Shown here in pieces: positions 48 to 15,318 of a stretch of 15,359 nucleotides of DNA. The notes under the pieces are model-generated. The model saw nothing but the letters and a program-made list of their open reading frames with translations, made no database searches and was not told where the DNA came from. The position numbers and the translations under genes are program-made. Origin of the DNA: a virus; the UHGV virus genome UHGV-1915822; one strand, given 5' to 3'. Numbering within the stretch: the first letter of the stretch is position 1; every line of letters begins with the position of its first letter.

Positions 48-215
48 TCAAAAGTTTTTAGCGATTATTTTTACTAATGTATAACCGTTGTCGAGATAGT
101 CTTGAATAGCTTCATAGAATACCTCCCAAGATTCATAAGTTTCATTTAAGCAAACAGGGATCAATGAATCTTTTTCTTGTGTGTAAAGTAGCGCTGATGC
201 GTGGATTTGTTTCAT
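48..215 (-). CDS. hypothetical small acidic protein (55 aa), divergently transcribed from the early region
   Basis: Manually reverse-complemented ORF, below the 60-aa cutoff of the supplied track: MKQIHASALLYTQEKDSLIPVCLNETYESWEVFYEAIQDYLDNGYTLVKIIAKNF. ATG is at plus 213-215, stop at plus 48-50. An AAAGGTGG ribosome-binding site lies 9 nt upstream on the minus strand, and a sigma-A-like promoter lies upstream at plus 251-279. No recognisable domain. Confidence 0.35.
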   Translation of the reverse strand: MKQIHASALLYTQEKDSLIPVCLNETYESWEVFYEAIQDYLDNGYTLVKIIAKNF

Positions 216-250: not shown

Positions 251-279
251 AGTATAGCAGGAAATATGCATAATGTCAA
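251..279 (-). promoter_or_regulatory. sigma-A-type promoter on the minus strand (TTGACA, 17-bp spacer, TG-extended TATACT)
   Basis: The reverse complement of plus 251-279 reads TTGACA-TTATGCATATTTCCTGC-TATACT. The spacer ends in TGC, giving a TGn extended -10. It is positioned about 35 nt upstream of the minus-strand ORF start at 215. Confidence 0.45.
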
Positions 280-312: not shown

Positions 313-361
313 AAAATATTTTGAAAAAAGTATTGACAAAAGTTTTGAAAAAAGTTATAAT
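313..361 (+). promoter_or_regulatory. consensus sigma-A-type early promoter (TTGACA-N17-TATAAT) with AT-rich upstream palindrome
   Basis: -35 TTGACA at 333-338, exact 17-bp spacer, -10 TATAAT at 356-361. A 10-bp palindrome AAAATATTTT sits at 313-322 in the UP-element position. The first well-supported plus-strand gene starts at 389. Confidence 0.55.
319..355. repeat. two exact 13-bp direct repeats TTTTGAAAAAAGT bracketing the -35 hexamer (candidate operator)
   Basis: Exact copies at 319-331 and 343-355, 24 bp apart, on either side of TTGACA (333-338). Read directly from the sequence. Confidence 0.7.
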
Positions 362-938: not shown

Positions 939-1193
939 ATGAAGTATGTAAAAAAGAAGATTAAGGTATATTATTATACGGCTCACAGGATGATTTTAGA
1001 AAATGGCAGCCCTAAGTCAATAGGTGAATATACGATTTCATATTCAAGTAAAAATGCGCAGGATCGTGTAATTCAAGACTTATTTAATAAAAAGTATGGG
1101 CAAGGGGTATATTTAGTAACGAGTATTACTGAGCAGGAAAAAATTTATGGTATGCCTTTAGATGAATTTATTACAAAAGCGGAGGAATTGTAG
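939..1193 (+). CDS. phi29 p6-like double-stranded DNA-binding (histone-like) protein
   Basis: 84 aa, ribosome-binding site GGAGGG (926-931) 7 nt upstream. The C-terminal segment NKKYGQGVYLVTSITEQEKIYGMPLDEFITKA resembles the phi29 p6 segment KRKYKGEGRVTVVSVEPNTEVYELPVEKFLEVA as I recall it. It sits immediately upstream of the SSB-like gene, as in phi29 (gene 6 then gene 5). Confidence 0.55.
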   Translation: MKYVKKKIKVYYYTAHRMILENGSPKSIGEYTISYSSKNAQDRVIQDLFNKKYGQGVYLVTSITEQEKIYGMPLDEFITKAEEL

Positions 1194-1194
1194 T

Positions 1195-1602
1195 ATGGAA
1201 AACAATATTGTCATGTTTAACCCGGATTTGGAGAATGGTATGTACACTTCTTTAGATTTGGAGACCAAAGAAGGTAAAGCAAAAGCTATGAAGGCCATGA
1301 GTCGTTGCGACTATTCTTTATCGAAAATGGTAAATAAACAGGTTGTTGTTAAAGATATTTTTCTTCAGCCGGTTGAGGTAAAGGATAAAGAAACAGGTGA
1401 AGTGCGGGAATTGATTCGTACTGTTTTATTTGATCCGGAGGGTAAAAGCTATTATTCATTGTCGGCTGGATTTGTACGGCAAGTAAAATTGCTGTTGTCG
1501 ATTTATGGACAGCCGTCGGAATGGGAGGAGCCGATTACGATTTCGATTCGGCAAGATGAATTACCCGATGGAAAACGTACTTTTTCATTTGATGTATTGT
1601 AG
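1195..1602 (+). CDS. phi29 p5-like single-stranded DNA-binding protein
   Basis: ATG at 1195 directly after the upstream stop (1191-1193), GGAGG at 1181-1185. This is track ORF 1162..1602 trimmed to the start with a ribosome-binding site. N-terminus MENNIV and C-terminus KRTFSFDVL resemble recalled phi29 p5 (MENTNIV ... NVFFSLQLSL). Size is 135 aa. Confidence 0.55.
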   Translation: MENNIVMFNPDLENGMYTSLDLETKEGKAKAMKAMSRCDYSLSKMVNKQVVVKDIFLQPVEVKDKETGEVRELIRTVLFDPEGKSYYSLSAGFVRQVKLLLSIYGQPSEWEEPITISIRQDELPDGKRTFSFDVL

Positions 1603-1612
1603 GAAGGAGGAC

Positions 1613-1638
1613 GGGGAGGTAAAAACTCCCCTTTCTTT
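1613..1638 (+). terminator. intrinsic-terminator-like hairpin (GGGGAG / CTCCCC stem, 7-nt loop, T-rich tail)
   Basis: Stem 1613-1618 pairs with 1626-1631, loop GTAAAAA, followed by TTTCTTTAT. It sits between the SSB stop (1602) and the next start (1641). Confidence 0.5.
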
Positions 1639-1640
1639 AT

Positions 1641-1949
1641 ATGAGAGATTTATACATGGATTTAAAAAGAAGTCCTCATAAAATTCAGAGTAAAAACGGT
1701 ATTTTGTTTTATTTTTCTTCACAAAAGAGATGTACAAAATTTTGTGATGTGATATCAGCTTTTTGCGAGGATGAAGCGCATAAAATGAGTAATCGATATA
1801 AAATTTATATTGATTTTACAATTTTATATGAAATTATGCTGTATATGCAAATTGAGAAATACGGATTTTATATAGAATATAAGGGGGATGCGTTTACATG
1901 CCCAACGCAGGTAAAGTTAGATGGAGAGAAGCTGACGAAGCTAAGTTAA
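1641..1949 (+). CDS. phi29 p4-like transcriptional regulator
   Basis: 102 aa. ILFYFSSQKRCTKF and MLYMQIEKYGFYIEYKGD resemble the phi29 p4 segments VTFFFSSELYLNKF and FYSEVEKRGFHAWLKGD as I recall them. It sits between the SSB and terminal protein genes, as gene 4 does in phi29. The 3-prime end overlaps the terminal protein gene by 52 nt in another frame. The nearest SD (GGAGG 1606-1610) is 30 nt upstream, separated from the ATG by the hairpin. Confidence 0.45.
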   Translation: MRDLYMDLKRSPHKIQSKNGILFYFSSQKRCTKFCDVISAFCEDEAHKMSNRYKIYIDFTILYEIMLYMQIEKYGFYIEYKGDAFTCPTQVKLDGEKLTKLS

Positions 1950-2623
1950 AAAATCTGGTTAAGCGTTTTAATGCAAAGGTTGCCCGAAATGTAAAAAAGG
2001 GTGGGTTGATTGCGGAGGTACAACCAGCACCAATAAAAACAGCCGAATTGCGGGAAACATTAAAAGCAATTAGCAGGCGGGATGTAAATTATAGCTTCCA
2101 AAAGCTGGAAAATTATTTGCGTAAGGGTGCAGAGATGCCATATACGACTAAGAAGGGTGTAAATACAACCGTATGGCAGAAAAAGGAAATTGACAGGGCA
2201 ATAAGAACGATTAACGCCAGAAACAGGCAAGAATTATCGGATTATGAAATTGGGCCATATAAAGGAAATATTGGGACGATTGAAAGAAGTAATATGCGTC
2301 CGAGAAAGAACAGAGTGCAAACGCTTGAGCCTAAAGATTGGGACAGATATGTGGAAAGGCTGGATCGGCAGGTTTATGCTACGAATATCAGTGCAAAGAG
2401 CGCAAGATATAAAGAAAATTTTTTAAAAGCGATTGAAACTACCTTCGGGTCTAACTCAAAGCTATATCAAGCGATTCGTAAAATACCCCCTGAAATGTTG
2501 CATGAATATTATTATACTGATCCAATTTTAACCGTTCAATTTGTATCTGATCCACGTGAAGCCGAAGAAATACAACGTAGGATGTTAGACCGATTAGATG
2601 AAGAAGGTTTACTTCTTGAGTGA
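1898..2623 (+). CDS. terminal protein (protein primer for DNA replication)
   Basis: 241 aa. N-terminus MPNAGKVRWREADEAKLKNLVKRFNAKVARNVKKGG aligns residue-for-residue in length with the recalled phi29 TP N-terminus MARSPRIRIKDNDKAEYARLVKNTKAKIARTKKKYG. Ribosome-binding site AAGGGGG (1881-1887). It is immediately upstream of the polymerase, and its stop overlaps the polymerase GTG start (GTGA). Confidence 0.8.
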   Translation: MPNAGKVRWREADEAKLKNLVKRFNAKVARNVKKGGLIAEVQPAPIKTAELRETLKAISRRDVNYSFQKLENYLRKGAEMPYTTKKGVNTTVWQKKEIDRAIRTINARNRQELSDYEIGPYKGNIGTIERSNMRPRKNRVQTLEPKDWDRYVERLDRQVYATNISAKSARYKENFLKAIETTFGSNSKLYQAIRKIPPEMLHEYYYTDPILTVQFVSDPREAEEIQRRMLDRLDEEGLLLE

Positions 2624-4299
2624 GATATTGCGCTGATTTTGAGACGATCAACGATAAAGATGATTGTCGGGTTTGGGCTTGGTGGATTTCTGAAATTGAC
2701 AATGAAGAAAACAGCGAAAAAGGAAATGACATTGACAGTTTTATGTCCTCTTTATTTATGTATTGCGGGGATACCGTGTATTTTCATAATTTAAAGTTTG
2801 ATGGTGAATTTATTTTAAATTGGCTTTTTAGGAATGGATATACGCATATTCGAGATACGAAATTTAGTAAGGAAAAAACTTTTACTACGTTAATTAGTGA
2901 TACAGGTGCATTTTATTCCATGAAGATTTGTTTTCTTATGCAGGATAAAAAGCCTTTATTTGTAACCATTATTGATAGCTTGAAGATTATTCCTTTAAGT
3001 ATTCGGCAAATGGCTAAGGCGTTCGGATTAGAAGTGTCAAAGGGAGAGATTGATTATAATGCCTTTCGGCCTGTTGGGTATGAACCCAGTGTGGAGGAAT
3101 GGGATTATATCAAGCGTGATGTATATATTGCTTGCCGGGCATTAAGTGTTTTGTTTAATCAGGGGTTAAAAAAGATTACGCAAGCCAGTAATGCAATGGC
3201 CGATTATAAAAAGACGATTCCGAAGAAATTTAGCCGTTGGTTTCCAAAGATTGCGTATGATGCAGATATTCGTAGGAGTTATAGAGGAGGGTTCACTTAT
3301 TTAAACCCAAAGTTTAAGGATATGGACTTAGGTGAGGGCATTGTATTAGATGTAAATAGTTTATATCCTTCTGTTATGTATTATGAGCGTTTACCGTATG
3401 GGGAGCCTATTGCTTTTGAAGGCGAGTACAAGCCGGATGATTTATATGATTTATACGTTCAAAAATTTGCGTGTCAATTTGAATTGAAGAAGGGAAAAAT
3501 TCCTACCGTACAATTAAAGAACAATTTGAGCTTTGTGCCGACGGAATATTTAACATCGTCAGGCGACCAATATGTAACGATGTATATGACGAATGTAGAT
3601 TTAAAATTATTTTTAGAAAATTACGATGTGTATGATCTGGATTATCATAGAGGCTGGAAATTTAAAAGCGCTGAAGGTTTATTTAAAGAATATATTGATA
3701 AATGGATGAAAATAAAGATTGAAAGTGATGGCGTGAATCCGGGTATGAGGCAATTAGCGAAGCTCATGTTAAATGCTTTATATGGTAAATTTGGATTAAA
3801 CCCTGAAATACGAAGTAAAATTCCTTATTTGGACGAAGGGATTATTAAATATCAAACGGTAAAGGAAGAAGATCGAGATCCAATATATATTCCGATGGCT
3901 TCTTTTATCACCAGTTATGCCAGAAATAAAACGATACGATCTGCGCAATCGGTATATGATCGTTTTGTGTATGCAGATACAGACAGCTTGCATTTATTGG
4001 GTTTTGATTATCCTGAGGGGCTGGATATTGACGCGCACCGGTTGGGGGCATGGAAGCCTGAAAGTCGTTTTCATCGTGCCCGTTTTTTACGCCAGAAATG
4101 CTATATTGAGGATGAATTGGATAAAGACGATCAAGCTAAAGGGTTAAAGATTGTGTGCTCAGGCTTACCGGAAGAATGCTATGGGCAGGTGAATTGGGAT
4201 AATTTTCATTATGGGGTGACGTACGAAGGTAAATTGTTCCCTTATCATGCAAAAGGGGGAATCGTATTGACAGAGGGAGAGTTCACCTTAAGGAAATAG
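2620..4299 (+). CDS. protein-primed family B DNA polymerase (phi29-type)
   Basis: 559 aa. Exo I motif in YCADFETIND, Exo II YFHNLKFDGEFIL, motif A DVNSLYPS, motif B KLMLNALYGKF, motif C YADTDS, and KxY in LRQKCY. All closely parallel phi29 DNA polymerase. GTG start at 2620. Confidence 0.95.
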   Translation: MRYCADFETINDKDDCRVWAWWISEIDNEENSEKGNDIDSFMSSLFMYCGDTVYFHNLKFDGEFILNWLFRNGYTHIRDTKFSKEKTFTTLISDTGAFYSMKICFLMQDKKPLFVTIIDSLKIIPLSIRQMAKAFGLEVSKGEIDYNAFRPVGYEPSVEEWDYIKRDVYIACRALSVLFNQGLKKITQASNAMADYKKTIPKKFSRWFPKIAYDADIRRSYRGGFTYLNPKFKDMDLGEGIVLDVNSLYPSVMYYERLPYGEPIAFEGEYKPDDLYDLYVQKFACQFELKKGKIPTVQLKNNLSFVPTEYLTSSGDQYVTMYMTNVDLKLFLENYDVYDLDYHRGWKFKSAEGLFKEYIDKWMKIKIESDGVNPGMRQLAKLMLNALYGKFGLNPEIRSKIPYLDEGIIKYQTVKEEDRDPIYIPMASFITSYARNKTIRSAQSVYDRFVYADTDSLHLLGFDYPEGLDIDAHRLGAWKPESRFHRARFLRQKCYIEDELDKDDQAKGLKIVCSGLPEECYGQVNWDNFHYGVTYEGKLFPYHAKGGIVLTEGEFTLRK

Positions 4300-4328
4300 T
4301 TTACAATTTGTGTAAAAAAGTATATAAT
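4300..4328 (+). promoter_or_regulatory. sigma-A-type promoter upstream of the packaging ATPase gene (TTTACA-N17-TATAAT)
   Basis: TTTACA at 4300-4305 immediately after the polymerase stop, 17-bp spacer, TATAAT at 4323-4328. Confidence 0.5.
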
Positions 4329-4464
4329 AATATTGAGAAGGTAAGACGGAAAAACGGATCAAATGCTGTTATGGGTGCCACTGATGAAAGATTCAGCCAT
4401 AAAGCCGTGGGAGTGGTTTCTATTTGGTTTGTGCCGTTTTATCTTTTCTTTTTTAGGTGGTTTT

Positions 4465-5487
4465 ATGGGTAAATATTGGGACATCGGAAAAATTTTGAGT
4501 TATCAGCGTAATTTTAATTTTATCAATGGCGAACGATCAATAGGAAAAACCTACACGACGGAGAAGTTTTTTATTGAAAAAGCGATTAAAACAGGAAAAG
4601 AATTCGTGTATATTACTCGTACACAGGACGAAAAACGGAACGGAATATTTAAAGAAGCATTCAGCAAAGTAATATCGCGAGAATTTCCCGACAAAGAGAT
4701 TATTTTCACAAATGACGAATGTCTATTAAAAATTGCCGAATACAAAAGATGCTTAGGATATTGTATTGCATTAAGTGAAGCGTTAAAGATAAAGAAACGT
4801 TCTTTCCCGAATGTGTATTATTTAATGTTTGATGAATATATGCTGGAAAATAAAGGTTTAACCCGTTATGTAAATGGATGGAAGGAGCCGGAATTATTTT
4901 TATCTATTTATCATACCATTGACCGTGAAGAAGATCGCGTTATTTGTTTTTTATTGGGGAATAATACAACTTTTTATAACCCGTATCATATGCATCCTGC
5001 GTTTCAAATTCCCCATATAAAAAAGGGACAAATATGGTCAGGGGAGAACGTTCTTTTTCAATGGGCTGAAGGCACAGAAGAATTACGGGAAGAAAAAGCG
5101 AATTGTAAGTTCTTAAAAATGCTGAACGATACTACATATGGTAAATATGCGGTAAAAGGCGACTATATAGAAGATTCTGACGAATTTATTGAAAAAAGAA
5201 GCGCAGAAGCAAGAGTTAGCTTTAATATTGAATATATGGGAAATACCTATGGCATATGGAATGATATGAAGCATGGCCGAATTTACATTGATACAAAAAC
5301 AGACCCGGATTGTACCTTAAATTATGCTTTAACCTTAGAGGATCATAGTGAAAATACCATGTTGACATCAACGAAATCAATCTCTTGTTTAAATTGGCTT
5401 TCTCAAAATTTTAAACTGGGGAATGTTCGTTTTGTTTCTATGGAAGTAAAAAAGATGTGCGAGGGAGCCATCAATCTGATTTTATAG
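4465..5487 (+). CDS. DNA encapsidation (packaging) ATPase, phi29 gp16-like
   Basis: Walker A GERSIGKT and Walker B YYLMFDEY. ILSYQRNFNFINGERSIGKTY parallels phi29 gp16 MLSYDRILNFVIGARGIGKSY. I chose the ATG at 4465 (AGGTGG at 4455-4460) because it places Walker A at the same distance from the N-terminus as in phi29. The track's longest ORF starts at 4363 without a ribosome-binding site and adds a hydrophobic 34-aa extension, so the start is uncertain. Confidence 0.85.
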   Translation: MGKYWDIGKILSYQRNFNFINGERSIGKTYTTEKFFIEKAIKTGKEFVYITRTQDEKRNGIFKEAFSKVISREFPDKEIIFTNDECLLKIAEYKRCLGYCIALSEALKIKKRSFPNVYYLMFDEYMLENKGLTRYVNGWKEPELFLSIYHTIDREEDRVICFLLGNNTTFYNPYHMHPAFQIPHIKKGQIWSGENVLFQWAEGTEELREEKANCKFLKMLNDTTYGKYAVKGDYIEDSDEFIEKRSAEARVSFNIEYMGNTYGIWNDMKHGRIYIDTKTDPDCTLNYALTLEDHSENTMLTSTKSISCLNWLSQNFKLGNVRFVSMEVKKMCEGAINLIL

Positions 5488-5498
5488 GGGTTGATGAA

Positions 5499-5750
5499 AT
5501 GGATGTAAATACTGCGATTCAGTTAATTAACGGTGTAGGATTTCCCATTTTTGCGTGTATTGCTATGGGGGTGTTTGTTGTTTGGGACAAGAAAACCCGG
5601 AAAGACACGGAAGAAAAGCAACAAGATAAGCAGGAAAAGGTTTTAGAAAATATTACAACGGCTTTAAATCAAAATACTTTGGTTATTCAAAAGCTGGTAG
5701 ATAAGCTGGGAGGCGTAGACGATGCAAAAACTGACATTACCGGTAAATAA
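5499..5750 (+). CDS. small single-TM membrane protein, holin-like candidate
   Basis: ATG at 5499 with AGGGG 9 nt upstream; the track ORF starts at an in-frame GTG at 5457 overlapping the ATPase end. One hydrophobic segment GVGFPIFACIAMGVFVVW is followed by a highly charged tail KKTRKDTEEKQQDKQEK. It lies directly upstream of, and overlaps, the M23 peptidase gene. Confidence 0.4.
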   Translation: MDVNTAIQLINGVGFPIFACIAMGVFVVWDKKTRKDTEEKQQDKQEKVLENITTALNQNTLVIQKLVDKLGGVDDAKTDITGK

Positions 5751-6471
5751 TTGCGGAGTTACCTGCGGGTATAAAAATCAGAATTATCGGAATTATTGGG
5801 GATTTGGACATTACGGCGTTGACTATGTGTCCGATAGTCTTGTTCTCTATGCTTTAGGAAACGGCGAGGTGTTGATGAAAGGATGGGATAATCTTTTTGG
5901 CAACATCATTATTATTAAATACCCTGAGGTATATAATCATGCCACGGGTGAAGTAAAAGATTTAATTTGCCGTATGTATCACATGGCGAGTGAAAGTCCT
6001 TGTGAAGTTGGGTATCAAGTAAGCAGAGGAGAAAGCATTGGCATTATGGGGACGACAGGCCAATACTCTAGTGGTGTTCATGTCCATATTGAATTTGATA
6101 CCGACACGAAATATTATAATTACGGAGTTCCGTTGGCTAAGGATTCCAACCTGATTAAAAAGGGTGTGGATTCTACGGTTGATCCTTCGGACATTCTTTA
6201 TGTAGGTTCTAACCAGAGAGTTTACAATAATTCTCTAAATGGGTGGGCAACGGATAAAGAATTAAATTTGCCCTTATTGGACGAAGAACCCGAAAAACCA
6301 AAAGATCCCGAAATGAGTGAAGAATTGAAAAAACAACTGGATGAATTAGCATCCCGTGTTTCTAAAAATGAAAAAGATATATCGGATCTTTACACAGGAA
6401 TGGCGAAGAACGATGAATTTCGTGAAAATATGTTGAAAGCAATGGAGGCGGTTATAAATGGCTCTAACTAG
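5722..6471 (+). CDS. M23 family zinc metallopeptidase (peptidoglycan endopeptidase), virion-associated lysin or endolysin
   Basis: 249 aa. Contains HYGVD (HxxxD) and GTTGQYSSGVHVHIE (HxH), the hallmark LytM/M23 zinc-ligand motifs. Ribosome-binding site GGGAGG (5708-5713). The C-terminal ~100 aa is a charged coiled-coil-like region with no recognisable cell-wall-binding domain. Confidence 0.85.
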   Translation: MQKLTLPVNNCGVTCGYKNQNYRNYWGFGHYGVDYVSDSLVLYALGNGEVLMKGWDNLFGNIIIIKYPEVYNHATGEVKDLICRMYHMASESPCEVGYQVSRGESIGIMGTTGQYSSGVHVHIEFDTDTKYYNYGVPLAKDSNLIKKGVDSTVDPSDILYVGSNQRVYNNSLNGWATDKELNLPLLDEEPEKPKDPEMSEELKKQLDELASRVSKNEKDISDLYTGMAKNDEFRENMLKAMEAVINGSN

Positions 6472-6829
6472 AGACGAATATATGCAAATTTTAGAGCGCA
6501 TCAGTGAAACCGGCGGTTTTACGGAAGCTATGCTCGATGATTTGCAGAAGCTAAAAGACGATTACGATGAACGGGAAGGGATGCTGAAAGTCGAGGATGA
6601 AGCATCGGATAAAACCGTATATACGGATGATCAGGTGTATGATACCGACGGAGTAAGCTGGAGAGATAAATACGACGATATGAAGCGCCGGTATAAAGCA
6701 AGATTCTTTTCTACTCCTCTTGAAGCTAAAGAAGAGCAGATAGAAGATATTGCATCAGACAGCGACAGCACAACCCGTACCTATGAGGAAATTTTTGAAA
6801 CAAGAGAGGGAGATTATAATGCCGACTAA
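6458..6829 (+). CDS. putative head scaffolding protein
   Basis: 123 aa, highly acidic and helix-prone (rich in D/E/K/R), GGAGG at 6444-6448. It sits immediately upstream of the major capsid gene and overlaps it, as scaffold gene 7 does in phi29. No direct sequence match recalled, so the call rests on position and composition. Confidence 0.5.
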   Translation: MALTRDEYMQILERISETGGFTEAMLDDLQKLKDDYDEREGMLKVEDEASDKTVYTDDQVYDTDGVSWRDKYDDMKRRYKARFFSTPLEAKEEQIEDIASDSDSTTRTYEEIFETREGDYNAD

Positions 6830-8111
6830 ACAGACGTACAAAGCCTTGTCGCCTACTGCGCAGAACATGGATATTATGAACTATGTGCGTTCGCAGACCG
6901 ATTTTAATTATCAGAACAGAATCCCGATTGCAACACAGGAAAATTTAAACAACATTTATCAGACGATTCTTTGTAATTACGATTTGCAGAATGAGTTTAT
7001 TAAAACCCTTGTGAATCGTATTGCTCTGACTACCATTTCTTCCAAGCTGATTGAGAATCCCCTTGCCCCCTTGAAAAAGGGCGTAATTCGGCACGGTGAA
7101 TTTGTAAATGAATACTTTGTGAATATTGCAAAAGCGCATGAATTTGATCAGGGCGTTGCAGAGAAGGAGGTATTCAAACGGGAAATCCCGGATGTAGATG
7201 CAGTGTTTCATAAGCTGAACCTCAAGAACTTTTATAAAGTAACCATCTCGAATGAAATGCTCCGAGAAGCGTTCTTGTCCGACAGCGGTATTTCCGACAT
7301 GGTAAGTCGGATTATCGACAGCTTATACAGCGGGGCGAACTATGATGAATTCCTCTGCATGAAAAATATTATCGCAGAAGGGGCAAATAACGGAGCATTT
7401 TTGCCTGTTACGATTCCTGCTGTTACGGGCGATAATATTAAAGATGTGGTAGCAACCATCAAAGCGACTTCAATCAAACTGACGTTCCCCTCAACGAAAT
7501 ACAATGCTATGGGCGTTTTGACACTGACGAAACCCGAAGATCAGATTATTTTGATTGACCCTGATTTTGAGGCTTCAATGGATGTGAACGTTTTGGCAGC
7601 CGCTTTTAATCTCCCTTATGCTCAGTTCATGGCAAACCGGATTCCGATTGATGATTTCGGGGGGATTACCGGTGTCAAAGCCGCTCTTGTTGACCGTAAT
7701 TTCTTTATGGTGTTTGATTTTGAACAGTTGTTCACCGAAAATTACAATGGTCAGGGTTTGTATTGGAACTATTTCTATCATGTATGGAAAATGTTCTCCT
7801 ATTCTCCGTTCTCGAACGCTGTTTTGTTTACTACGGAAACGAATAGTGTACAGAGTGTTGATGTAACGCCCGCAACGGCAACGGTAGCAAGAGGAAATAC
7901 CCAGCAAATGACCGCTGTTGTAGCAACTACCGGCTTTGCACCGAAATCGGTTGATTGGACGGTAACCGGTGCGCAAACTCCAACTTCCTCGATCACCAAT
8001 ACCGGTCTTTTGAGTGTTGCAACCAATGAACCGAATACCACTTTGACGGTAAAAGCAACCAGTACTTTCGATTCCTCGAAATCGGATACCGCCAGCATTA
8101 CCGTTGGCTAA
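6819..8111 (+). CDS. major capsid protein with C-terminal bacterial Ig-like (Big_2-type) domain
   Basis: Start chosen at ATG 6819 (GAGGGAG at 6805-6811); the track ORF begins in-frame upstream at 6750 inside the scaffold gene. NEFIKTLVNRIALTTI parallels phi29 gp8 NDFITTLVDRIGLVVI. The C-terminal ~90 aa (VDVTPATATVARGNTQQMTAVVATTGF...TVKATS...ASITVG) has the Big_2 pattern. Confidence 0.8.
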   Translation: MPTKQTYKALSPTAQNMDIMNYVRSQTDFNYQNRIPIATQENLNNIYQTILCNYDLQNEFIKTLVNRIALTTISSKLIENPLAPLKKGVIRHGEFVNEYFVNIAKAHEFDQGVAEKEVFKREIPDVDAVFHKLNLKNFYKVTISNEMLREAFLSDSGISDMVSRIIDSLYSGANYDEFLCMKNIIAEGANNGAFLPVTIPAVTGDNIKDVVATIKATSIKLTFPSTKYNAMGVLTLTKPEDQIILIDPDFEASMDVNVLAAAFNLPYAQFMANRIPIDDFGGITGVKAALVDRNFFMVFDFEQLFTENYNGQGLYWNYFYHVWKMFSYSPFSNAVLFTTETNSVQSVDVTPATATVARGNTQQMTAVVATTGFAPKSVDWTVTGAQTPTSSITNTGLLSVATNEPNTTLTVKATSTFDSSKSDTASITVG

Positions 8112-8119
8112 AGAATAAC

Positions 8120-8149
8120 GGGGAGCTTTTCGCTCCCCTTTTTTCTTTT
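8120..8149 (+). terminator. rho-independent terminator after the capsid gene
   Basis: Stem GGGGAGC (8120-8126) pairs with GCTCCCC (8132-8138), 5-nt loop, then TTTTTTCTTTT. Confidence 0.8.
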
Positions 8150-9804: not shown

Positions 9805-10706
9805 TGGATTGTATGAAATTATTTGGACATAAACCTCCTAAAAAATACGCGCATTTGATTATGAATCACCGTACGTTTTGGGATTACTATTACCGTTTAT
9901 TGGGATTAAGCGTAAATTTATTTGAATGGAAAAATATACCCGATACCATTGACCCCAGATTTCTGGAGCTTACCTTGATTGAACGCGGATATGCAGTATA
10001 CTTTAATGATGAAGTATTAGGGGATCTTGCATTACCCTGTAGGATTGGTACTCCTTTAAATGTATATCGGATACCTGTTAGAAGAACTGCCTACTCGGTA
10101 AATGGATATAATAAGGATCTTACCATAGAAAATTCGGTTATGATCTTTAATAATTATCTGCACACTCCTTCTGTAGAAACAATCCTTCTTTTTGCCGGAA
10201 GATTGGCCGAAATTGAACGAACAATCGATGTAAATGTAAAAGCGCAAAAAACGCCTGTCACAATTCTTTGCGAACCACAGCAGGAATTTACCTTTAAAAA
10301 CTTTTACAACAAGGTGTCAGAAAATGAGCCGGTTATTATCGGAAACGCGCAAGGGTTTTCATTAGACAGCGTAAAGGTTCTGAATACCGCTTCTCCCTAT
10401 GTAGGCGACAAGCTCAATATTTTAAAGCGTCAAATATGGAATGAAGCGCTAACCTTCCTTGGGATTGAAAATGTTTCAAGTGATAAGAAAGAAAGGCTTG
10501 TCAGTGATGAAGTAGAAACCAACCTTGGCGCAGTAGCCGCGCAACGCTATACCCTTTTAAATTCCCGCAGAGAAGCAGCAGAAAAGATCAATAAAATGTT
10601 CGGTACGAATATTGAAGTAAACTTTAGGGCTGAAACGAGAACAGAGGAAAGAATTGCAGATTTACCCGAAAACGAGTATAATGGTTATAGAGAGGAAGTG
10701 GAATAA
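9804..10706 (+). CDS. portal / upper collar connector protein (phi29 gp10-like)
   Basis: 300 aa. LFEWKNIPDTIDPRFLE, KAQKTPVTIL and KKERLVSDEV parallel phi29 gp10 LFEWENLPPTINPSFLE, NAQKTPVLIR and KKERMVTDEV. TAATG overlap with the tail knob stop. Confidence 0.85.
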   Translation: MDCMKLFGHKPPKKYAHLIMNHRTFWDYYYRLLGLSVNLFEWKNIPDTIDPRFLELTLIERGYAVYFNDEVLGDLALPCRIGTPLNVYRIPVRRTAYSVNGYNKDLTIENSVMIFNNYLHTPSVETILLFAGRLAEIERTIDVNVKAQKTPVTILCEPQQEFTFKNFYNKVSENEPVIIGNAQGFSLDSVKVLNTASPYVGDKLNILKRQIWNEALTFLGIENVSSDKKERLVSDEVETNLGAVAAQRYTLLNSRREAAEKINKMFGTNIEVNFRAETRTEERIADLPENEYNGYREEVE

Positions 10707-11731
10707 TGGCCGAATATAGCATTGAATTAGGTACATTAGTAAAAATGGGCTATCCGCTTGCTCTTAATGATTACCCGATCTTTCGCGAAGATTACCGGGA
10801 AATACTAAACCGAAAAATTATCGATCACTTCTATTTCCGTGAAATTGGTTTTGAAACGCCCGACCGTTTTAATCATTTCCTCCATATGGTGATGCATGAA
10901 AACATGCCGTATTTCAACCAATTATATGAGAGTGAATTCTTAAAGTTTGACCCTCTCAGCACGGACTATTTTGAAGAGGTATCGGAGGATGTAACGAACA
11001 ATATAAAAGCGGGCAGACGGGACAACACACACACCCAAACCGAAACCACCGGTGACAGGTATACTTCGTTACATTCTCTCGATTCCTCCATCAACGTTGT
11101 TGGTAATGTATCCGACAAGGGAAATATTAACGATACCGAGAACATTACTTCAAAATCAACCCAAACGAATGATTTGACTACACAGGTAAATTCAAGCAGT
11201 CAAGGTGACGGAACACAAGACACGACCGGAAGCAGAACCAAATATTTTTCCGATATGCCGCAAACCGCAATTACCAATACCACAACGGTTAATCCCGATG
11301 GAAGCGTCACCTATTCTACAAACGGTTATGCAACCACCATGGAAACGGAAAGCACAGCCCAGCACGATGTTACCCATACCGAGGAAACGGGGCAATCTAC
11401 ATCGACCAATACCGGCACTATTGTCACCGAGGGAGAAAGCGACCGAACCTATGGAAGAACAACCACAAATACAACCGATGAAACCAACGATAGAACCCAA
11501 AAAGACACCCAACACGAAGATACACAACGCAATATCCTGAACAATTTGTCTTTCTTAGACAATGCGGTCAATAGCGAGGCAACCGATGAAACAAGAAAAA
11601 GTAAAAATGCTCGGAAAGGGCGCTCCGGCGTTTCTCCTTCTTCCCTTATTCAGGAATATCGGAATACGTTTTTAAATATTGATAAACAGGTTATTGCAAG
11701 CCTCGAAAATTTATTTATGGGGGTATTCTAA
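10706..11731 (+). CDS. lower collar protein (phi29 gp11-like) with long polar low-complexity insert
   Basis: 341 aa. Position between portal and appendage genes matches gene 11 in phi29. TAATG overlaps on both sides. The central ~170 aa is T/S/N/D/E/Q-rich low complexity. Confidence 0.6.
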   Translation: MAEYSIELGTLVKMGYPLALNDYPIFREDYREILNRKIIDHFYFREIGFETPDRFNHFLHMVMHENMPYFNQLYESEFLKFDPLSTDYFEEVSEDVTNNIKAGRRDNTHTQTETTGDRYTSLHSLDSSINVVGNVSDKGNINDTENITSKSTQTNDLTTQVNSSSQGDGTQDTTGSRTKYFSDMPQTAITNTTTVNPDGSVTYSTNGYATTMETESTAQHDVTHTEETGQSTSTNTGTIVTEGESDRTYGRTTTNTTDETNDRTQKDTQHEDTQRNILNNLSFLDNAVNSEATDETRKSKNARKGRSGVSPSSLIQEYRNTFLNIDKQVIASLENLFMGVF

Positions 11732-14700
11732 TGTACGATTGCAACAAAAAGCCTTGCACTCCACCTCCTGTGGATCCATGCGAGCATCACCATCCTTGTG
11801 GCCCGGATTTTCCGAATTTTTGCCCTCCTCCTGCTCCCCACCCTGCCCCTTATCAGCCTCCTTGCCCATCCGTTGCGGAGGGCTCTTCGCTATATGAGGC
11901 CGTCAACAATCTGACGAATCGCGTCAACACCTGTATGGCAACCTATAACGATGTAATGGCAAACTGCTATAAAACACTTCACAATCTGGAATGCGCGGCA
12001 CAGGAAAACGGGGCATATTATGATTGCCATGAGGTATGGACAGAAACCGGTTATCAGCCGGACGAAAGCGCAACCTATACCATTATTCATAAAGCCGTTG
12101 TCGACCGACGCGGTGAGCCGATCCGTATGCAATTACATCTTGCTTATGGAAATACGACTAATTCGCAGATTACCCAAAACTTATTTTCTGCATCCGAAGT
12201 AACGCTGGCAGACAAAATTGTCCCGGCTATTCCTCTTACCGGTACAGGCTGGTATGGTAATGCGATTATAAACGGTTGCCCGATTCCTTCAACCGAAGCC
12301 TCTACCTATTATACAGTTGGCTTTACGAAAAAAGGTGTAATGCGCTATTACCCGAATTCGGTATCGGTTGATCAAATGTTAAAGGATACCATTGAGAATG
12401 CCATGGGGTGCTCAGGCGTTCTCATTATCAACAGCCAGATTGCAAATGATGCATTCTTTGAGCATATCCCGAACGCTACCGAACAAAAAGCACGTATCGT
12501 TATGGGCCAAAACTACGATACCCGCGAGGTCATGATTCTCGTATGCGGACAGGAAAACAATGTTGATAAAAAAGGTCTCACTTCTAAAGCGTGCGCCGAA
12601 ATTCTTCTTCAGTATGGTTGTGACATCGCCGTGGAGCTTTCCGAAGGTGACAGCGCAGGAGCATGTGACAAAGGGCAACTGATGTTCGTCCCCGACAATA
12701 ACAATGTGCCGGAGACTTACGCATTCTGGTATATCTCCCGCAAATGCTTCTATTGCAATGATTACCAGCGTGAACTCGCAAAGCTCATGCAGAATTATGG
12801 AACTTGTCTTTGGCAAACATATTTGAATAAAAAGAAAATCGAACAGCTTCGGGAGGATTTGAATACCGAAATCACAAATCGCGAGGATGCCGATCAGGTA
12901 TTGCAAAACCAAATCCTCGAAGAAGTCGATAATCGCGTTAAAGCTGACGAAGTATTGCAAAACCAAATCCTTGCAGAGGTCGATAACCGCGTTAAAGCAG
13001 ACGAAGTATTACAAAACCAAATCCTCGCGGAAGTGGACAACAGAGTTAACGCAGATAATGTCCTGCAAAACCAGATCCTTACGGAAGTAGACGCGAGAAA
13101 AAATGCAGACGATGTTTTACAAAATCAAATCCTTGAGGAAGTAAAAAATAGAGAAAACGCAGATAACACCCTGCAAGAACAAATCCTTACCGAAACAAAC
13201 GCAAGAATCGATGCGGATGAATCCCTGCAAAATCAAATTATTACCGAAACAAACGCCCGTGTCGCGTATGATGAAAACTTACAAGCACAAATTACAAAAG
13301 AAGTAACCGATAGAACAAATGCGGATGCTACCCTGCATCAAGAAATATTAACCGAACAAGGCGAAAGAATCGCCGCAGATGAAGTTCTTCAAAGAAATAT
13401 CAACGAAGAAGCCGCTACTAGAGCAGAAGAAGATACAAAACTACAAGGTAATATTGATGCAGAAACAACCGCCAGACAAGAAGCAGATGCCACCCTGCAA
13501 TCGAATATCGACGCATTGGCACAAAGAGTAACCGTCCTTGAAACGGATGTCGATCAGCTTCAAACCCTCTATAATTCCTTGCAGGAACAAACCGCCGCAA
13601 TGGATACAGCCATTACTTCCATTCAGCAAACGATTGCTTCTATTGAAACTTCTCTGAATAATGTAAAAACCTCTATCGACAATATCACCAACGGTACAAC
13701 ACTCCTGCCGTATTTGCCGATCAAAGGCGGTACAATGCAAGGTTCCATCAACATGAATAATAAATCGATTACCAATGTTCCTTCTCCTTCAGCAGACGGC
13801 GACGCGGTAAACAAAAAATATGTTGATGACGCGATTGCAGGTGGTATTACTCCTCCAACAGGCGACTATCTCCCCTTATCCGGCGGTACCATGACGGGAA
13901 ACATCAACATGAATAACAACCGTGTAACCTCTGTAGGAGCGCCCAGCGCAGGTACAGATGCAGTAAATAAAGACTATGTTGATGATGAAATCGCAACCGC
14001 AGGAGATGGAAAATTCCTTCCGTTGGCAGGTGGCGCATTAACCGGCGCAGTTACTACTACCGAAACTGAATTTGAAAATAATGAGCTTGTTACAAAATCG
14101 TATGTAGATGGACAGGTTGCAACCGCTGGAAATGGAAAATTCCTTCCATTAGCAGGTGGAACCATGACCGGGGCAATCAACATGGGTAATCAGAAAGTAA
14201 CAGCGGTCGCTACGCCTACTACAGGCACCGATGCTACCAATAAAACCTATGTGGATAACGCCATTTCTACTGCCGGAAATGGAAAATTCCTGCCGTTAGC
14301 AGGCGGAACTATGACCGGAGCAATCAATATGGGTAATCAAAAAGTAACAGCAGTCGCCACCCCGACAGATGGCTCAGATGCCGCAAATAAACAATATGTT
14401 GATCAAGCTGTTGCCGGTTCGTCTTATACGCTGCCTGCCGCTACTACTACTACACTTGGAGGTGTAAAGGTTGGAGAAGGTTTGTCCGTTACCGCGGATG
14501 GCACGTTGTCGGCTACGGGTGGAAGCACAGATATTCCCATTGCAAGCGATACCGTTCTTGGTGGAATTAAAGTCGGGGAATCACTTTCTATTGAAGCTGA
14601 CGGTACTTTAAGCGTTGTTGCATCCGATAATCCTACTACTCCGCGAATGCCTGTTAATAAAGAGTATGTCGATAATCAGCTCGACAATTTTGTAGCAAAA

Positions 14701-15318
14701 ACTGGCGATACTATGACAGGGCATTTATCAATGAGCAATCGATCAAACGTTAAAATTTTAGATGATGACGATGAACCTGTTGCAAGTCTTGGTTATCTGT
14801 TTGGCGTTACAAAACCTAGAGGAATTATATCTTTCTTAAAAAACCCGGGCACCATCAATAACCTATTTAATGAAAATTATCTTGCTACGTATGCCTTAAA
14901 TCAACGAGAAGCTGTAAACTATGTAGGACGTACATTCAAATTCGGTGGAACCTTTACGGGAGGAGCATATAACTGTGTTGCTACACATTTAGGATTTGAA
15001 GATCCTAATGGTAAGGCTTCCAGATATGCAAATGTCAAATTAGATATTGACATCTATTGCTTAACTCCTATTACGACTGCTCCTTCCTTTGCCTTCAATC
15101 TACCAACTTCTATTTTTACGGTAAGAACTGGAACTATCACAGACGAAATATGGAAATTTACATACGCAGATAATGTATATTTGAATATTACTGCTCAAGA
15201 AGGTGGTACTATTATTTGTAAATTTGGAGGTTCACCTGCCGTTGGTAGGCATATTTCTGCTACGATTATACCTTATCAGCTTGCTTGGAGTATTGATCCG
15301 GCTATCAATCTTCATTAA
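11731..15318 (+). CDS. pre-neck appendage / tail fibre protein (gp12-position), multidomain
   Basis: 1195 aa at the gene-12 position. Contains a Cys/Pro/His-rich N-terminus, an N-terminal globular region of ~280 aa, about 15 tandem 14-aa repeats, five phage tail-fibre-type repeats (LPLAGGTMTG...NK.YVD), two GG-VKVGE-DGTLS repeats, and a distinct C-terminal domain. Confidence 0.85.
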   Translation: MYDCNKKPCTPPPVDPCEHHHPCGPDFPNFCPPPAPHPAPYQPPCPSVAEGSSLYEAVNNLTNRVNTCMATYNDVMANCYKTLHNLECAAQENGAYYDCHEVWTETGYQPDESATYTIIHKAVVDRRGEPIRMQLHLAYGNTTNSQITQNLFSASEVTLADKIVPAIPLTGTGWYGNAIINGCPIPSTEASTYYTVGFTKKGVMRYYPNSVSVDQMLKDTIENAMGCSGVLIINSQIANDAFFEHIPNATEQKARIVMGQNYDTREVMILVCGQENNVDKKGLTSKACAEILLQYGCDIAVELSEGDSAGACDKGQLMFVPDNNNVPETYAFWYISRKCFYCNDYQRELAKLMQNYGTCLWQTYLNKKKIEQLREDLNTEITNREDADQVLQNQILEEVDNRVKADEVLQNQILAEVDNRVKADEVLQNQILAEVDNRVNADNVLQNQILTEVDARKNADDVLQNQILEEVKNRENADNTLQEQILTETNARIDADESLQNQIITETNARVAYDENLQAQITKEVTDRTNADATLHQEILTEQGERIAADEVLQRNINEEAATRAEEDTKLQGNIDAETTARQEADATLQSNIDALAQRVTVLETDVDQLQTLYNSLQEQTAAMDTAITSIQQTIASIETSLNNVKTSIDNITNGTTLLPYLPIKGGTMQGSINMNNKSITNVPSPSADGDAVNKKYVDDAIAGGITPPTGDYLPLSGGTMTGNINMNNNRVTSVGAPSAGTDAVNKDYVDDEIATAGDGKFLPLAGGALTGAVTTTETEFENNELVTKSYVDGQVATAGNGKFLPLAGGTMTGAINMGNQKVTAVATPTTGTDATNKTYVDNAISTAGNGKFLPLAGGTMTGAINMGNQKVTAVATPTDGSDAANKQYVDQAVAGSSYTLPAATTTTLGGVKVGEGLSVTADGTLSATGGSTDIPIASDTVLGGIKVGESLSIEADGTLSVVASDNPTTPRMPVNKEYVDNQLDNFVAKTGDTMTGHLSMSNRSNVKILDDDDEPVASLGYLFGVTKPRGIISFLKNPGTINNLFNENYLATYALNQREAVNYVGRTFKFGGTFTGGAYNCVATHLGFEDPNGKASRYANVKLDIDIYCLTPITTAPSFAFNLPTSIFTVRTGTITDEIWKFTYADNVYLNITAQEGGTIICKFGGSPAVGRHISATIIPYQLAWSIDPAINLH
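12868..13530 (+). repeat. tandem 42-bp (14-codon) repeats, about 15 units, inside the appendage gene
   Basis: Unit consensus at protein level is roughly N-R-x-x-A-D-x-x-L-Q-N-Q-I-L-x-E-V-D. Adjacent DNA units are near-identical, for example GTATTGCAAAACCAAATCCT recurs at 42-bp spacing. Confidence 0.8.
13711..14420 (+). repeat. five tail-fibre repeat units of 126-147 bp; the last two are near-identical 147-bp direct repeats
   Basis: Protein units LP(L/I)xGGTMxG.INM.N..VT.V..P....DA.NK.YVD. The DNA copies beginning near 14125 and 14272 are almost identical over about 147 bp. Confidence 0.8.
14431..14620 (+). repeat. two ~30-codon repeats (T-LGG-KVGE-L-ADGTLS)
   Basis: LPAATTTTLGGVKVGEGLSVTADGTLSA followed by IPIASDTVLGGIKVGESLSIEADGTLSV. 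Confidence 0.7.

Follow-up and report, generated by a model that had tools for sequence, protein, structure and literature searches.

What does a p4-type regulator do in a phage whose large genes all point the same way? The question is raised by UHGV virus genome UHGV-1915822, a 15,359-nt stretch of DNA (the whole of which is called the window here) that is a nearly complete phi29-like podovirus genome of ~15.4 kb. The p4 protein of phi29 is the textbook case of one protein activating and repressing promoters at once. To our knowledge, the mechanistic work on p4 all comes from three or four Bacillus phages. The open reading frame (ORF) at 1641-1949 of the window is a genuine gene 4 orthologue. 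It encodes a member of the p4 family with the p4 fold and is under purifying selection. Judged by its alignment, the protein is a derived short form without the first strand of the N-terminal hook, the hook glycine, and the C-terminal tail. The preferred reading, with a probability of roughly 0.45, is that it acts as a low-abundance DNA-bending modulator or repressor of A-tract-rich early promoters, with expression attenuated by a terminator-like hairpin that would also form a split ribosome-binding site.

A p4-family protein encoded between genes 5 and 3

Pfam family PF05464 (Phi-29_GP4) matches residues 2-86 of the product with 43.7 bits against a cut-off of 27 bits (E 3.6e-11), and PHROG 10365, "late transcriptional activator," matches with E 1.5e-10. 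In a phmmer search of the PDB, phi29 p4 alone is matched (2FIP/2FIO, E 2e-5). The AlphaFold (AF2) monomer model, built from 60 homologues, has a predicted local distance difference test score (pLDDT) of 94.3. Foldseek places 2FIP/2FIO in all of the top five PDB positions (TM 0.67-0.75, root-mean-square deviation 1.7-2.5 A), and the next match has E>2. The gene is embedded in the phi29 order of p6-like protein, single-stranded DNA-binding protein (SSB), p4, terminal protein (TP), and polymerase. The sequence-only reading of the window had called the product p4-like, an identification borne out by profile similarity, fold, synteny, and conservation.

The ratio of nonsynonymous to synonymous change (pN/pS) between the window and a 68%-identical relative is 0.34 at a pS of 0.61, taken over the 85 non-overlapping codons. 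The frame of gene 4 is unbroken in every relative examined, and the ATGs of both gene 4 and the TP gene are kept in the 68%-identical relative together with their first codons. A chance ORF is rejected on the Pfam match, the pN/pS value, and the fold match.

The family is larger than its Bacillus members. An exhaustive HMMER search returns 285 cluster representatives at E<=1e-3 (clusters at 50% identity). The majority of the family is 95-110 aa long; a short length is thus normal, and it is the 125-aa, basic-tailed phi29 form that stands out. The short tail-less p4 is the commonest form among the 150 best cluster representatives. Literature searches on PF05464 and on Hungatella phage CH17P1, a sewage isolate that encodes a homologue, gave nothing relevant. 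Relatives are named below by L-numbers, which denote the loci and contigs compared with the window (e.g., L001, L097); L010 is CH17P1 (OP172758).

The 3' end of gene 4 overlaps the TP gene by 52 nt in another frame (1898-1949), as the sequence-only reading stated. Both frames are open in the 68%-identical relative, and pS falls to 0.25-0.28 in both. The overlap had also been taken for a peculiarity, which it is not. PZA has an overlap of 112 nt and GA-1 one of 130 nt, 52 nt is the most frequent length (35 of 78 metagenomic loci), and the codons at the junction are homologous. The TP ATG, preceded in the window by AAGGGGGA 8 nt upstream, takes its A from the final base of a Thr/Ser codon and its TG from the Trp/Cys codon that follows. 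These codons are ACA TGG in PZA and GA-1, ACA TGC in CH17P1 and the window (1895-1900, gene 4 codons Thr85-Cys86), and TCA TGC in L099. The junction always lies in one relative frame, directly after a conserved G-D/V-x-x motif. The family-wide Cys or Trp at this point may be conserved partly for supplying the TG of the TP ATG. By its homologous codons, the overlap is judged to be ancestral; its length differs because p4 tail lengths differ.

Hairpin and putative ribosome-binding site before gene 4

Every other gene of the window has a Shine-Dalgarno (SD) sequence at normal spacing; gene 4 does not. Its sole SD-like sequence is AGGAGG (1606-1611), the core of a purine tract located 29 nt upstream of the ATG. 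A GC-rich hairpin and a U-rich tract occupy the space between the two (Table 1). When the stem is closed, the distance from SD to AUG is reduced from 29 nt to ~10 nt. A stable hairpin between the AUG and an SD over 20 nt away is the layout of a split ribosome-binding site. The stem itself is conserved through a compensatory change to GGGGCG/CGCCCC in L008 and L009.

Split ribosome-binding sites are known from T4 genes 38 and 25, where SD and AUG are 22 and 27 nt apart and the effective spacing is 5 and 11 nt (PMC3014915). The window resembles these genes in that an SD too far from the AUG is brought closer by an intervening hairpin. Unlike theirs, the window hairpin has a U-tract and is located at the place of the phi29-type terminator TA1, and it is predicted that it may both terminate and bridge. 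A GC-rich stem-loop with a U-tract at the gene 5/gene 4 boundary is the TA1-type layout and a predicted terminator. The GA-1 annotation places TA1 where gene 4 begins, and in phi29 a terminator lies within gene 4 (PMC11476376).

The layout is widespread. A GC-rich hairpin precedes gene 4 in 47 of 76 distinct upstream contexts, with stems unrelated in sequence. An SD just 5' of the hairpin is present in all 17 loci that lack an SD after the hairpin, compared with 1 of 27 loci that have one (Fisher 2.6e-11; the loci are not independent and make up roughly ten sequence families). The succession of SD, hairpin, and AUG is also found in L010, L017, L020, L021, L034, L054, L058, L067, L072, and L077.

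Translation of gene 4 is assigned to the first ATG, at 1641. An in-frame stop (TAA, 1620-1622) excludes any start upstream. A start at the second ATG (1656), as called in P0002, is improbable; the 68%-identical relative retains the first ATG together with its five codons. The hairpin lies 7-9 nt from ATG 1641 and 5-16 nt from the start in other split-site loci, which favours the first ATG. The longer 118-aa version in P0001 is an artefact of a 1-nt indel in the loop that deletes the in-frame stop. The layout explains why gene callers miss or mis-start the gene, as in P0001, P0002, and CH17P1. In CH17P1, the p4 homologue (10889-11203) is absent from the GenBank annotation and lies between the coding sequences 10326-10841 and 11131-11874.

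DNA contacts, promoters, and the search for an operator

The N-hook of phi29 p4 is formed by residues 2-5 in antiparallel orientation to residues 6-11. The base read by Arg6 is the G at +/-13, Thr4, Tyr33, Lys51, and Arg54 touch the DNA backbone, and both Thr4 and Arg6 are essential for DNA binding (PMC3100819). The window protein begins with MRDLYMDL, and its Arg2 is aligned with Arg6 of phi29. The residues equivalent to phi29 2-5, including Thr4, are absent, and Gly7 is replaced by Asp. Arg30, Lys48, and Arg52 are located in or beside three of the phi29 backbone-contact columns, and the Arg52 column holds Arg or Lys in 94% of the family. A T-[RK]-x-G-[IV] N-terminus is found in about two thirds of the family (T/S in 110 and G in 98 of 151 sequences). 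Conservation of the hook arginine and of the first ATG is strict.

The C-terminal tail of phi29 p4 contacts the C-terminal domain of the RNA polymerase alpha subunit (alpha-CTD) through Arg120. The window protein stops at about phi29 residue 104 and has no such tail. Basic tails of the KLRERRK type are confined to Bacillus phages and, in the alignment, to PZA and GA-1. The contact between p4 and RNA polymerase is described in PMC11476376. The sequence-only reading had overlooked the absence of this tail and of most of the N-hook.

Three strong promoters are encoded in the window (279-251, 333-361, and 4300-4328), and all have a good -35. The early promoter with its repeats and the promoter at 4300-4328 had been recognized from the sequence alone, and both are present (12/12 and 11/12 consensus positions). 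The divergent arrangement of phi29 had been declared absent, which is correct for the large genes, all of which lie on the + strand in the ORF list. It is incorrect for the left end, where the promoters 279-251 and 333-361 form a divergent pair with their -35 boxes 53 bp apart. The minus promoter precedes a 55-aa ORF (215..48), the only minus-strand gene. In an inversion-breakpoint test, the small left-end ORFs showed no homology to the first late or early genes of relatives with divergent structural genes.

The repeats at the early promoter had been named as the obvious target of the regulator. The 13-mer TTTTGAAAAAAGT occurs twice (319-331 and 343-355), and Tandem Repeats Finder (TRF) reports a 12-bp array of TTTTGAAAAAAG in 3.2 copies at 319-356. 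The upstream copy matches the UP-element consensus. The layout TTTT[CG]AAAAAAG-N2-3-(-35) also occurs in GA-1 A2b and many relatives, and 12-bp arrays recur upstream of early promoters in many related phages. The repeats are thus an UP-element-like array common to this phage group, hold no inverted p4 box, and constitute weak evidence for a p4 operator. Separately, the early promoter TTGACA-AAAGTTTTGAAAAAAGT-TATAAT (spacer within window 333-355) is near-identical in its spacer to the post-ATPase promoter of L097, TTGACA-AAAAGTTTTGAAAATGG-TATAAT (6745-6773), despite only 60% polymerase identity.

The phi29-type operator CTTTTT-N15-AAAATG is found in no non-coding stretch of the window. A relaxed pattern gives two or three matches in the window, all within coding DNA. 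Elsewhere this relaxed pattern recovers a CTTTTT-N15-AAAATG match at PZA 23-49 and boxes in CH17P1 and type C loci. The candidate CTTTTT-N17-AAAATG at 1759-1787 in gene 4 was rejected as an autoregulatory site on its wrong spacing and its absence in L009. All three window copies of AAAAAAGT lie within two strong + promoters; as a statistically enriched operator, this element was rejected on a count not above chance, and only its locations are suggestive. No -35-less late promoter was found in non-coding stretches by a consensus scan that could miss a weak one in coding DNA. The scan likewise found no strong promoter in 4465-8111, a region without intergenic room for a late promoter.

These results bear on whether the window uses the classical phi29 switch, in which p4 binds an operator, activates a -35-less late promoter, and represses early promoters through RNA polymerase contact. 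The shared family and fold would suit it, as would the divergent pair at 251-361 and those relatives in which an operator stands beside a -35-less late promoter. It is countered by the missing equivalent of Arg120, by the loss of Thr4 and the first hook strand, which are essential in phi29 (PMC3100819), and by non-coding DNA without a p4 box. The good -35 of every strong promoter and the closely packed 4465-8111 region also speak against it. The classical switch is considered highly improbable for the window.

Genome architecture was surveyed in 80 IMG/VR loci with a p4 homologue. Type A (~40 loci) has structural genes divergent from the early genes, as in phi29 and CH17P1. Type B (~26 loci) is fully co-directional like the window, and type C (~12 loci) has the ATPase gene alone divergent. 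The capsid gene is co-directional in 38 of the 80 loci, and co-directional genomes that carry a p4 homologue are common rather than the exception they had been thought to be. In CH17P1-like, hook-bearing type A loci, an invariant AGAAAATxG is located ~11 nt upstream of the early -35, often with AACTTTT, and adjoins a late -10 without a -35. Type C loci possess a perfect AACTTTTT-N15-AAAAAGT box abutting the -35.

Among loci whose polymerase is at least 50% identical to that of the window, all co-directional lineages are hook-less (the window clade, L097, L034, and L036). The divergent lineages keep the T-[RK]-x-G-[IV] hook, with the exception of L078, which is near-canonical. Hook loss among these nearer relatives may be a single evolutionary event. 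A family-wide tie between hook loss and co-directionality was rejected as weak (10 of 24 type B loci vs. 10 of 46 others).

Compared with p4 of phi29 and PZA, the window protein shares the sequence family, the unique alpha/beta fold, the place between genes 5 and 3, and the hook arginine. The gene 3 overlap at homologous Thr-Trp/Cys codons and a predicted gene 5/4 terminator are also shared, and a p6-type gene is probably present. It differs in length (102 vs. 125 aa), in lacking the basic tail and the first hook strand (Pro2-Gln5), and in carrying Asp for Gly7, Cys for Arg45, and Tyr for Arg77. The non-coding stretches of the window also show neither the CTTTTT-N15-AAAATG site nor a -35-less late promoter, and its late genes are co-directional with the early ones.

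The p4G protein of GA-1 agrees with the window protein in family, gene order, gene 3 overlap, and the TA1 position at the gene 4 start. The GA-1 early promoter A2b carries TTTTCAAAAAAG just upstream of its -35. GA-1 differs in its phi29-type divergent layout, a late promoter annotated as -35-less, and a long C-terminal tail. CH17P1 is closer to the window in several respects. Its p4 homologue is short (104 aa), with the 52-nt TP overlap and the SD-hairpin-AUG layout, its polymerase is 60% identical, and an element resembling prohead RNA likewise lies between the polymerase and ATPase genes. CH17P1 differs in its canonical MxTRNGIV hook, divergent structural module, -35-less late promoter, and p4-box-like AACTTTTGG-N-AAAATGG between promoters.

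In the preferred reading, gene 4 would be expressed at a low level and solely from transcripts that read through the terminator-like hairpin (1613-1631). The same hairpin would bring the SD to ~10 nt from the AUG and create the split ribosome-binding site. The product is predicted to be a dimeric DNA-bending modulator or repressor that acts at the strong A-tract-rich early promoters of the divergent pair at 251-361, with 4300-4328 as a possible further target. It would probably work with the p6-like protein encoded at 939-1193. The repressor or architectural half of phi29 p4 function would be retained, and late promoters would not be activated through alpha-CTD contact. In favour of this reading stand the family, fold, and selection on the gene, the kept contact residues, the missing tail and p4 box, and the good -35 of the strong promoters. 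The hook-less p4 of the nearer co-directional lineages, the location of the AAAAAAGT copies, the probable p6-like partner, and, for expression, the SD-hairpin-AUG layout also favour it.

Several observations weigh against this reading. Gene 4 is the fastest-evolving gene in the replication block, with 68% identity compared with 82-91% in neighbouring genes. Residues well conserved in the family are lost in the window clade (the Arg45 and Arg77 replacements), and with this loss and the fast evolution, DNA binding may be weakened or lost there. The half-sites at the early promoter are direct rather than inverted repeats. The AAAAAAGT elements (3 observed vs. 2.2 expected) equal the UP-element consensus and may be used by RNA polymerase only. 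The minimum free energy (MFE) fold pairs the SD with the U-tract and would hide it. Confidence in the modulator role stays limited because no binding site for the window p4 was identified in the p4-box search of non-coding DNA, and the earlier judgement that the regulator's target is unclear stands.

The rapid evolution of gene 4 would also suit an evolutionary relic, kept mainly for the TP start and ribosome-binding site in its 3' end, as would the lost hook, the lost family-conserved residues, and the lack of a found target. A relic is difficult to reconcile with a pN/pS of 0.34 over codons outside the overlap at near-saturated pS, with a frame intact in every relative, and with a fold predicted at high confidence. 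Lineages with polymerases no more than 50-60% identical have retained hook-less p4 as well. That the gene is a mere relic is thus very unlikely.

Another explanation keeps DNA binding and removes promoter specificity. The window p4 would be a non-specific architectural partner of the p6-like protein, coating or bending A/T-rich DNA for genome organisation or replication. A degraded base-reading hook with retained backbone-contact residues is what this predicts, the p6-like gene is nearby, and no operator was found. The strict conservation of the hook arginine and first ATG is against it, as is a net charge of only +3. An attenuated, low-expression design also fits a regulator better than a stoichiometric coating protein. 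This explanation is considered unlikely, and the promoter-directed modulator is preferred.

A broader evolutionary proposal is doubtful. It holds that the tail-less p4 may be ancestral in a very large group of gut phi29-like phages, that hook and operator were lost in the co-directional lineage and the fold, still under selection, re-purposed to a new mode of action, and that the SD-terminator hairpin-AUG succession is a previously undescribed device coupling read-through to translation. Under this proposal, the p4 fold might compete with alpha-CTD for the UP-element A-tracts of the early promoters or control read-through past the RNA downstream of 4300-4328 into the late genes. The p4 family is large, mostly short and tail-less, and distributed over at least three genome architectures, and in one lineage or more the gene has been kept without the hook. 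The survey makes the minimal, ancestral function of the p4 fold testable.

The 4300-4328 promoter and the surrounding genome

The promoter at 4300-4328 had been read as a late promoter whose good -35 frees it from activation. The good -35 is confirmed. The freedom of a late promoter from activation is not, since the promoter is A1-like and precedes a conserved RNA resembling the prohead RNA (pRNA) of phi29. In PZA, gene 2 is followed by the near-consensus promoter A1 (TTGACA-17-TACAAT) and, directly after it, by the pRNA confirmed with Rfam. Promoter 4300-4328 and the RNA that follows it are the probable counterpart of A1 and pRNA, as suggested by sequence and position, a reading that would explain the good -35. 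In a relative with an 85%-identical polymerase, the -35, the -10, and the GTAAAAAAGTA block of the promoter are kept and the rest of the spacer is changed.

The 120-130 nt past the promoter are conserved better than the flanking genes, and they cannot be coding, since indels in L005-L007 break the overlapping ORF frame there. The segment 4336-4458 folds with an MFE of -35.8 kcal/mol (z -2.6) and paired 5' and 3' ends. A related element with a GTGAA(G/A)AG core is present in the polymerase/ATPase gap of type A and type B loci. A CUGA..UCAGCC hairpin and a UGGUU loop are shared with PZA pRNA. The RF00044 covariance model had no window match at E<=1, while PZA pRNA was found at 144.7 bits. RNAalifold gave no consensus structure for 12 sequences of the region, whose alignment is too divergent.

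The likeness to phi29 and PZA lies in a near-consensus promoter directly before an RNA of ~120 nt, both placed downstream of gene 2 and read in its direction. The window RNA differs in being missed by RF00044 and in adjoining the ATPase and late genes rather than the genome end. Expression of the late genes seems to rely on read-through beyond the U-rich 3' end of the pRNA-like RNA. A 2024 review still limits pRNA to Bacillus phages (PMC11476376). For the annotation of small gut podoviruses, a pRNA-like RNA ahead of the packaging ATPase gene is of practical use.

Table 1. Coordinates of the features discussed, numbered from the first letter of the window
Feature	Position	Strand	Basis
Divergent strong promoter, TTGACA-17-TGcTATACT, extended -10	251..279	-	Promoter scan; conserved in L001, L006
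Main early promoter, TTGACA (333-338)-17 bp-TATAAT (356-361), 12/12	319..361 (including array)	+	Promoter scan, TRF
Probable p6-like histone-like dsDNA-binding protein, 84-aa ORF	939..1193	+	Weak PHROG 6370 match
Gene 5-like SSB	1195..1602	+	PF17427 E 2.2e-10; PHROG 6243 E 1.4e-20
Purine tract GGAAGGAGGA	1603..1612	+	Invariant in all relatives though non-coding
GC-rich hairpin GGGGAG-gtaaaaa-CTCCCC	1613..1631	+	Terminator scan
U-rich tract TTTCTTTAT, hairpin-to-start-codon gap	1632..1640	+	
Gene 4 homologue, short-form p4-fold protein, 102 aa	1641..1949	+	Pfam, PHROG, PDB phmmer, Foldseek, pN/pS
Dual-coding overlap, gene 4 3' end/TP gene 5' end, 52 nt, different frames	1898..1949	+	
TP gene	1898-2623	+	
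Protein-primed family B DNA polymerase (gene 2)	2620..4299	+	PF03175 E 2e-73
A1-like promoter, TTTACA-17-TATAAT, 11/12	4300..4328	+	Promoter scan, conservation
pRNA-like structured RNA between polymerase and packaging-ATPase genes	4336..4458 (non-coding 4329-4464)	+	Conservation, fold
gp16-like DNA packaging ATPase	4465..5487	+	PF05894 E 2e-47; 340 aa called in relatives

The window encodes an SSB, a TP, a protein-primed polymerase, a gp16 packaging ATPase, and an M23 peptidase. A phi29-type capsid protein, tail knob, connector, collar, and a 1195-aa fibre are also encoded. The ORF at 939-1193 probably encodes a p6-like protein, an assignment linked only through an intermediate in L097. Its product matches the L097 protein at the same position (BLASTP E 6e-7), and the L097 protein matches Pfam p6 PF17548 at 27.9 bits against a 25-bit cut-off. 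With a p6-like gene here, the early block is collinear with phi29 genes 6-5-4-3-2. An N-terminal extension of the ATPase (ORF 4363-5487) was rejected; indels break the upstream frame in L005-L007, and the true start is near 4465.

At the DNA level, a megablast search of the whole window against deposited phages gave no match. Metagenome contigs from Logan and ENA encode the same gene 4 protein together with close variants. More distant relatives are human-faecal contigs and CH17P1. A search of IMG/VR with the window polymerase found nothing closer than 43%-identical relatives, and relatives at ~60% identity number in the thousands overall. The two window ends have imperfect similarity in inverted orientation, and a sister contig extends 22 nt further left.

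Several minor features accompany these genes. Positions 766-938 form a T-rich non-coding gap of 173 nt, in which the sister contigs L001 and L006 hold an extra ORF of 104-121 aa. The 68%-identical relative retains the 3' part of the gap, which includes -10-like TGCATAAAAT/TGTATACTAT and could contain a second promoter of the p6-SSB block. Directly 3' of the capsid gene, at 8120-8138, there is a strong terminator hairpin that is bidirectional (GGGGAGC-ttttc-GCTCCCC, with T runs). The 28-nt gap contains no promoter for the tail, connector, collar, and fibre genes past it.

The fibre gene (11731-15318) possesses in-frame tandem repeats in the regions 12898-13194 and 14128-14403. Units of 54 nt encode 18-aa coiled-coil-like repeats, e.g., ADEVLQNQILxEVDNRVK, and units of 147 nt encode 49-aa repeats (GKFLPLAGGTMTGAINMGNQKV...). 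L097, a co-directional phi29-like contig of 17.3 kb, shares 60% polymerase identity with the window. Near its left end, at 103-169 on the + strand, it carries a type II hammerhead ribozyme (RF02276, 51.6 bits, E 7.7e-8).

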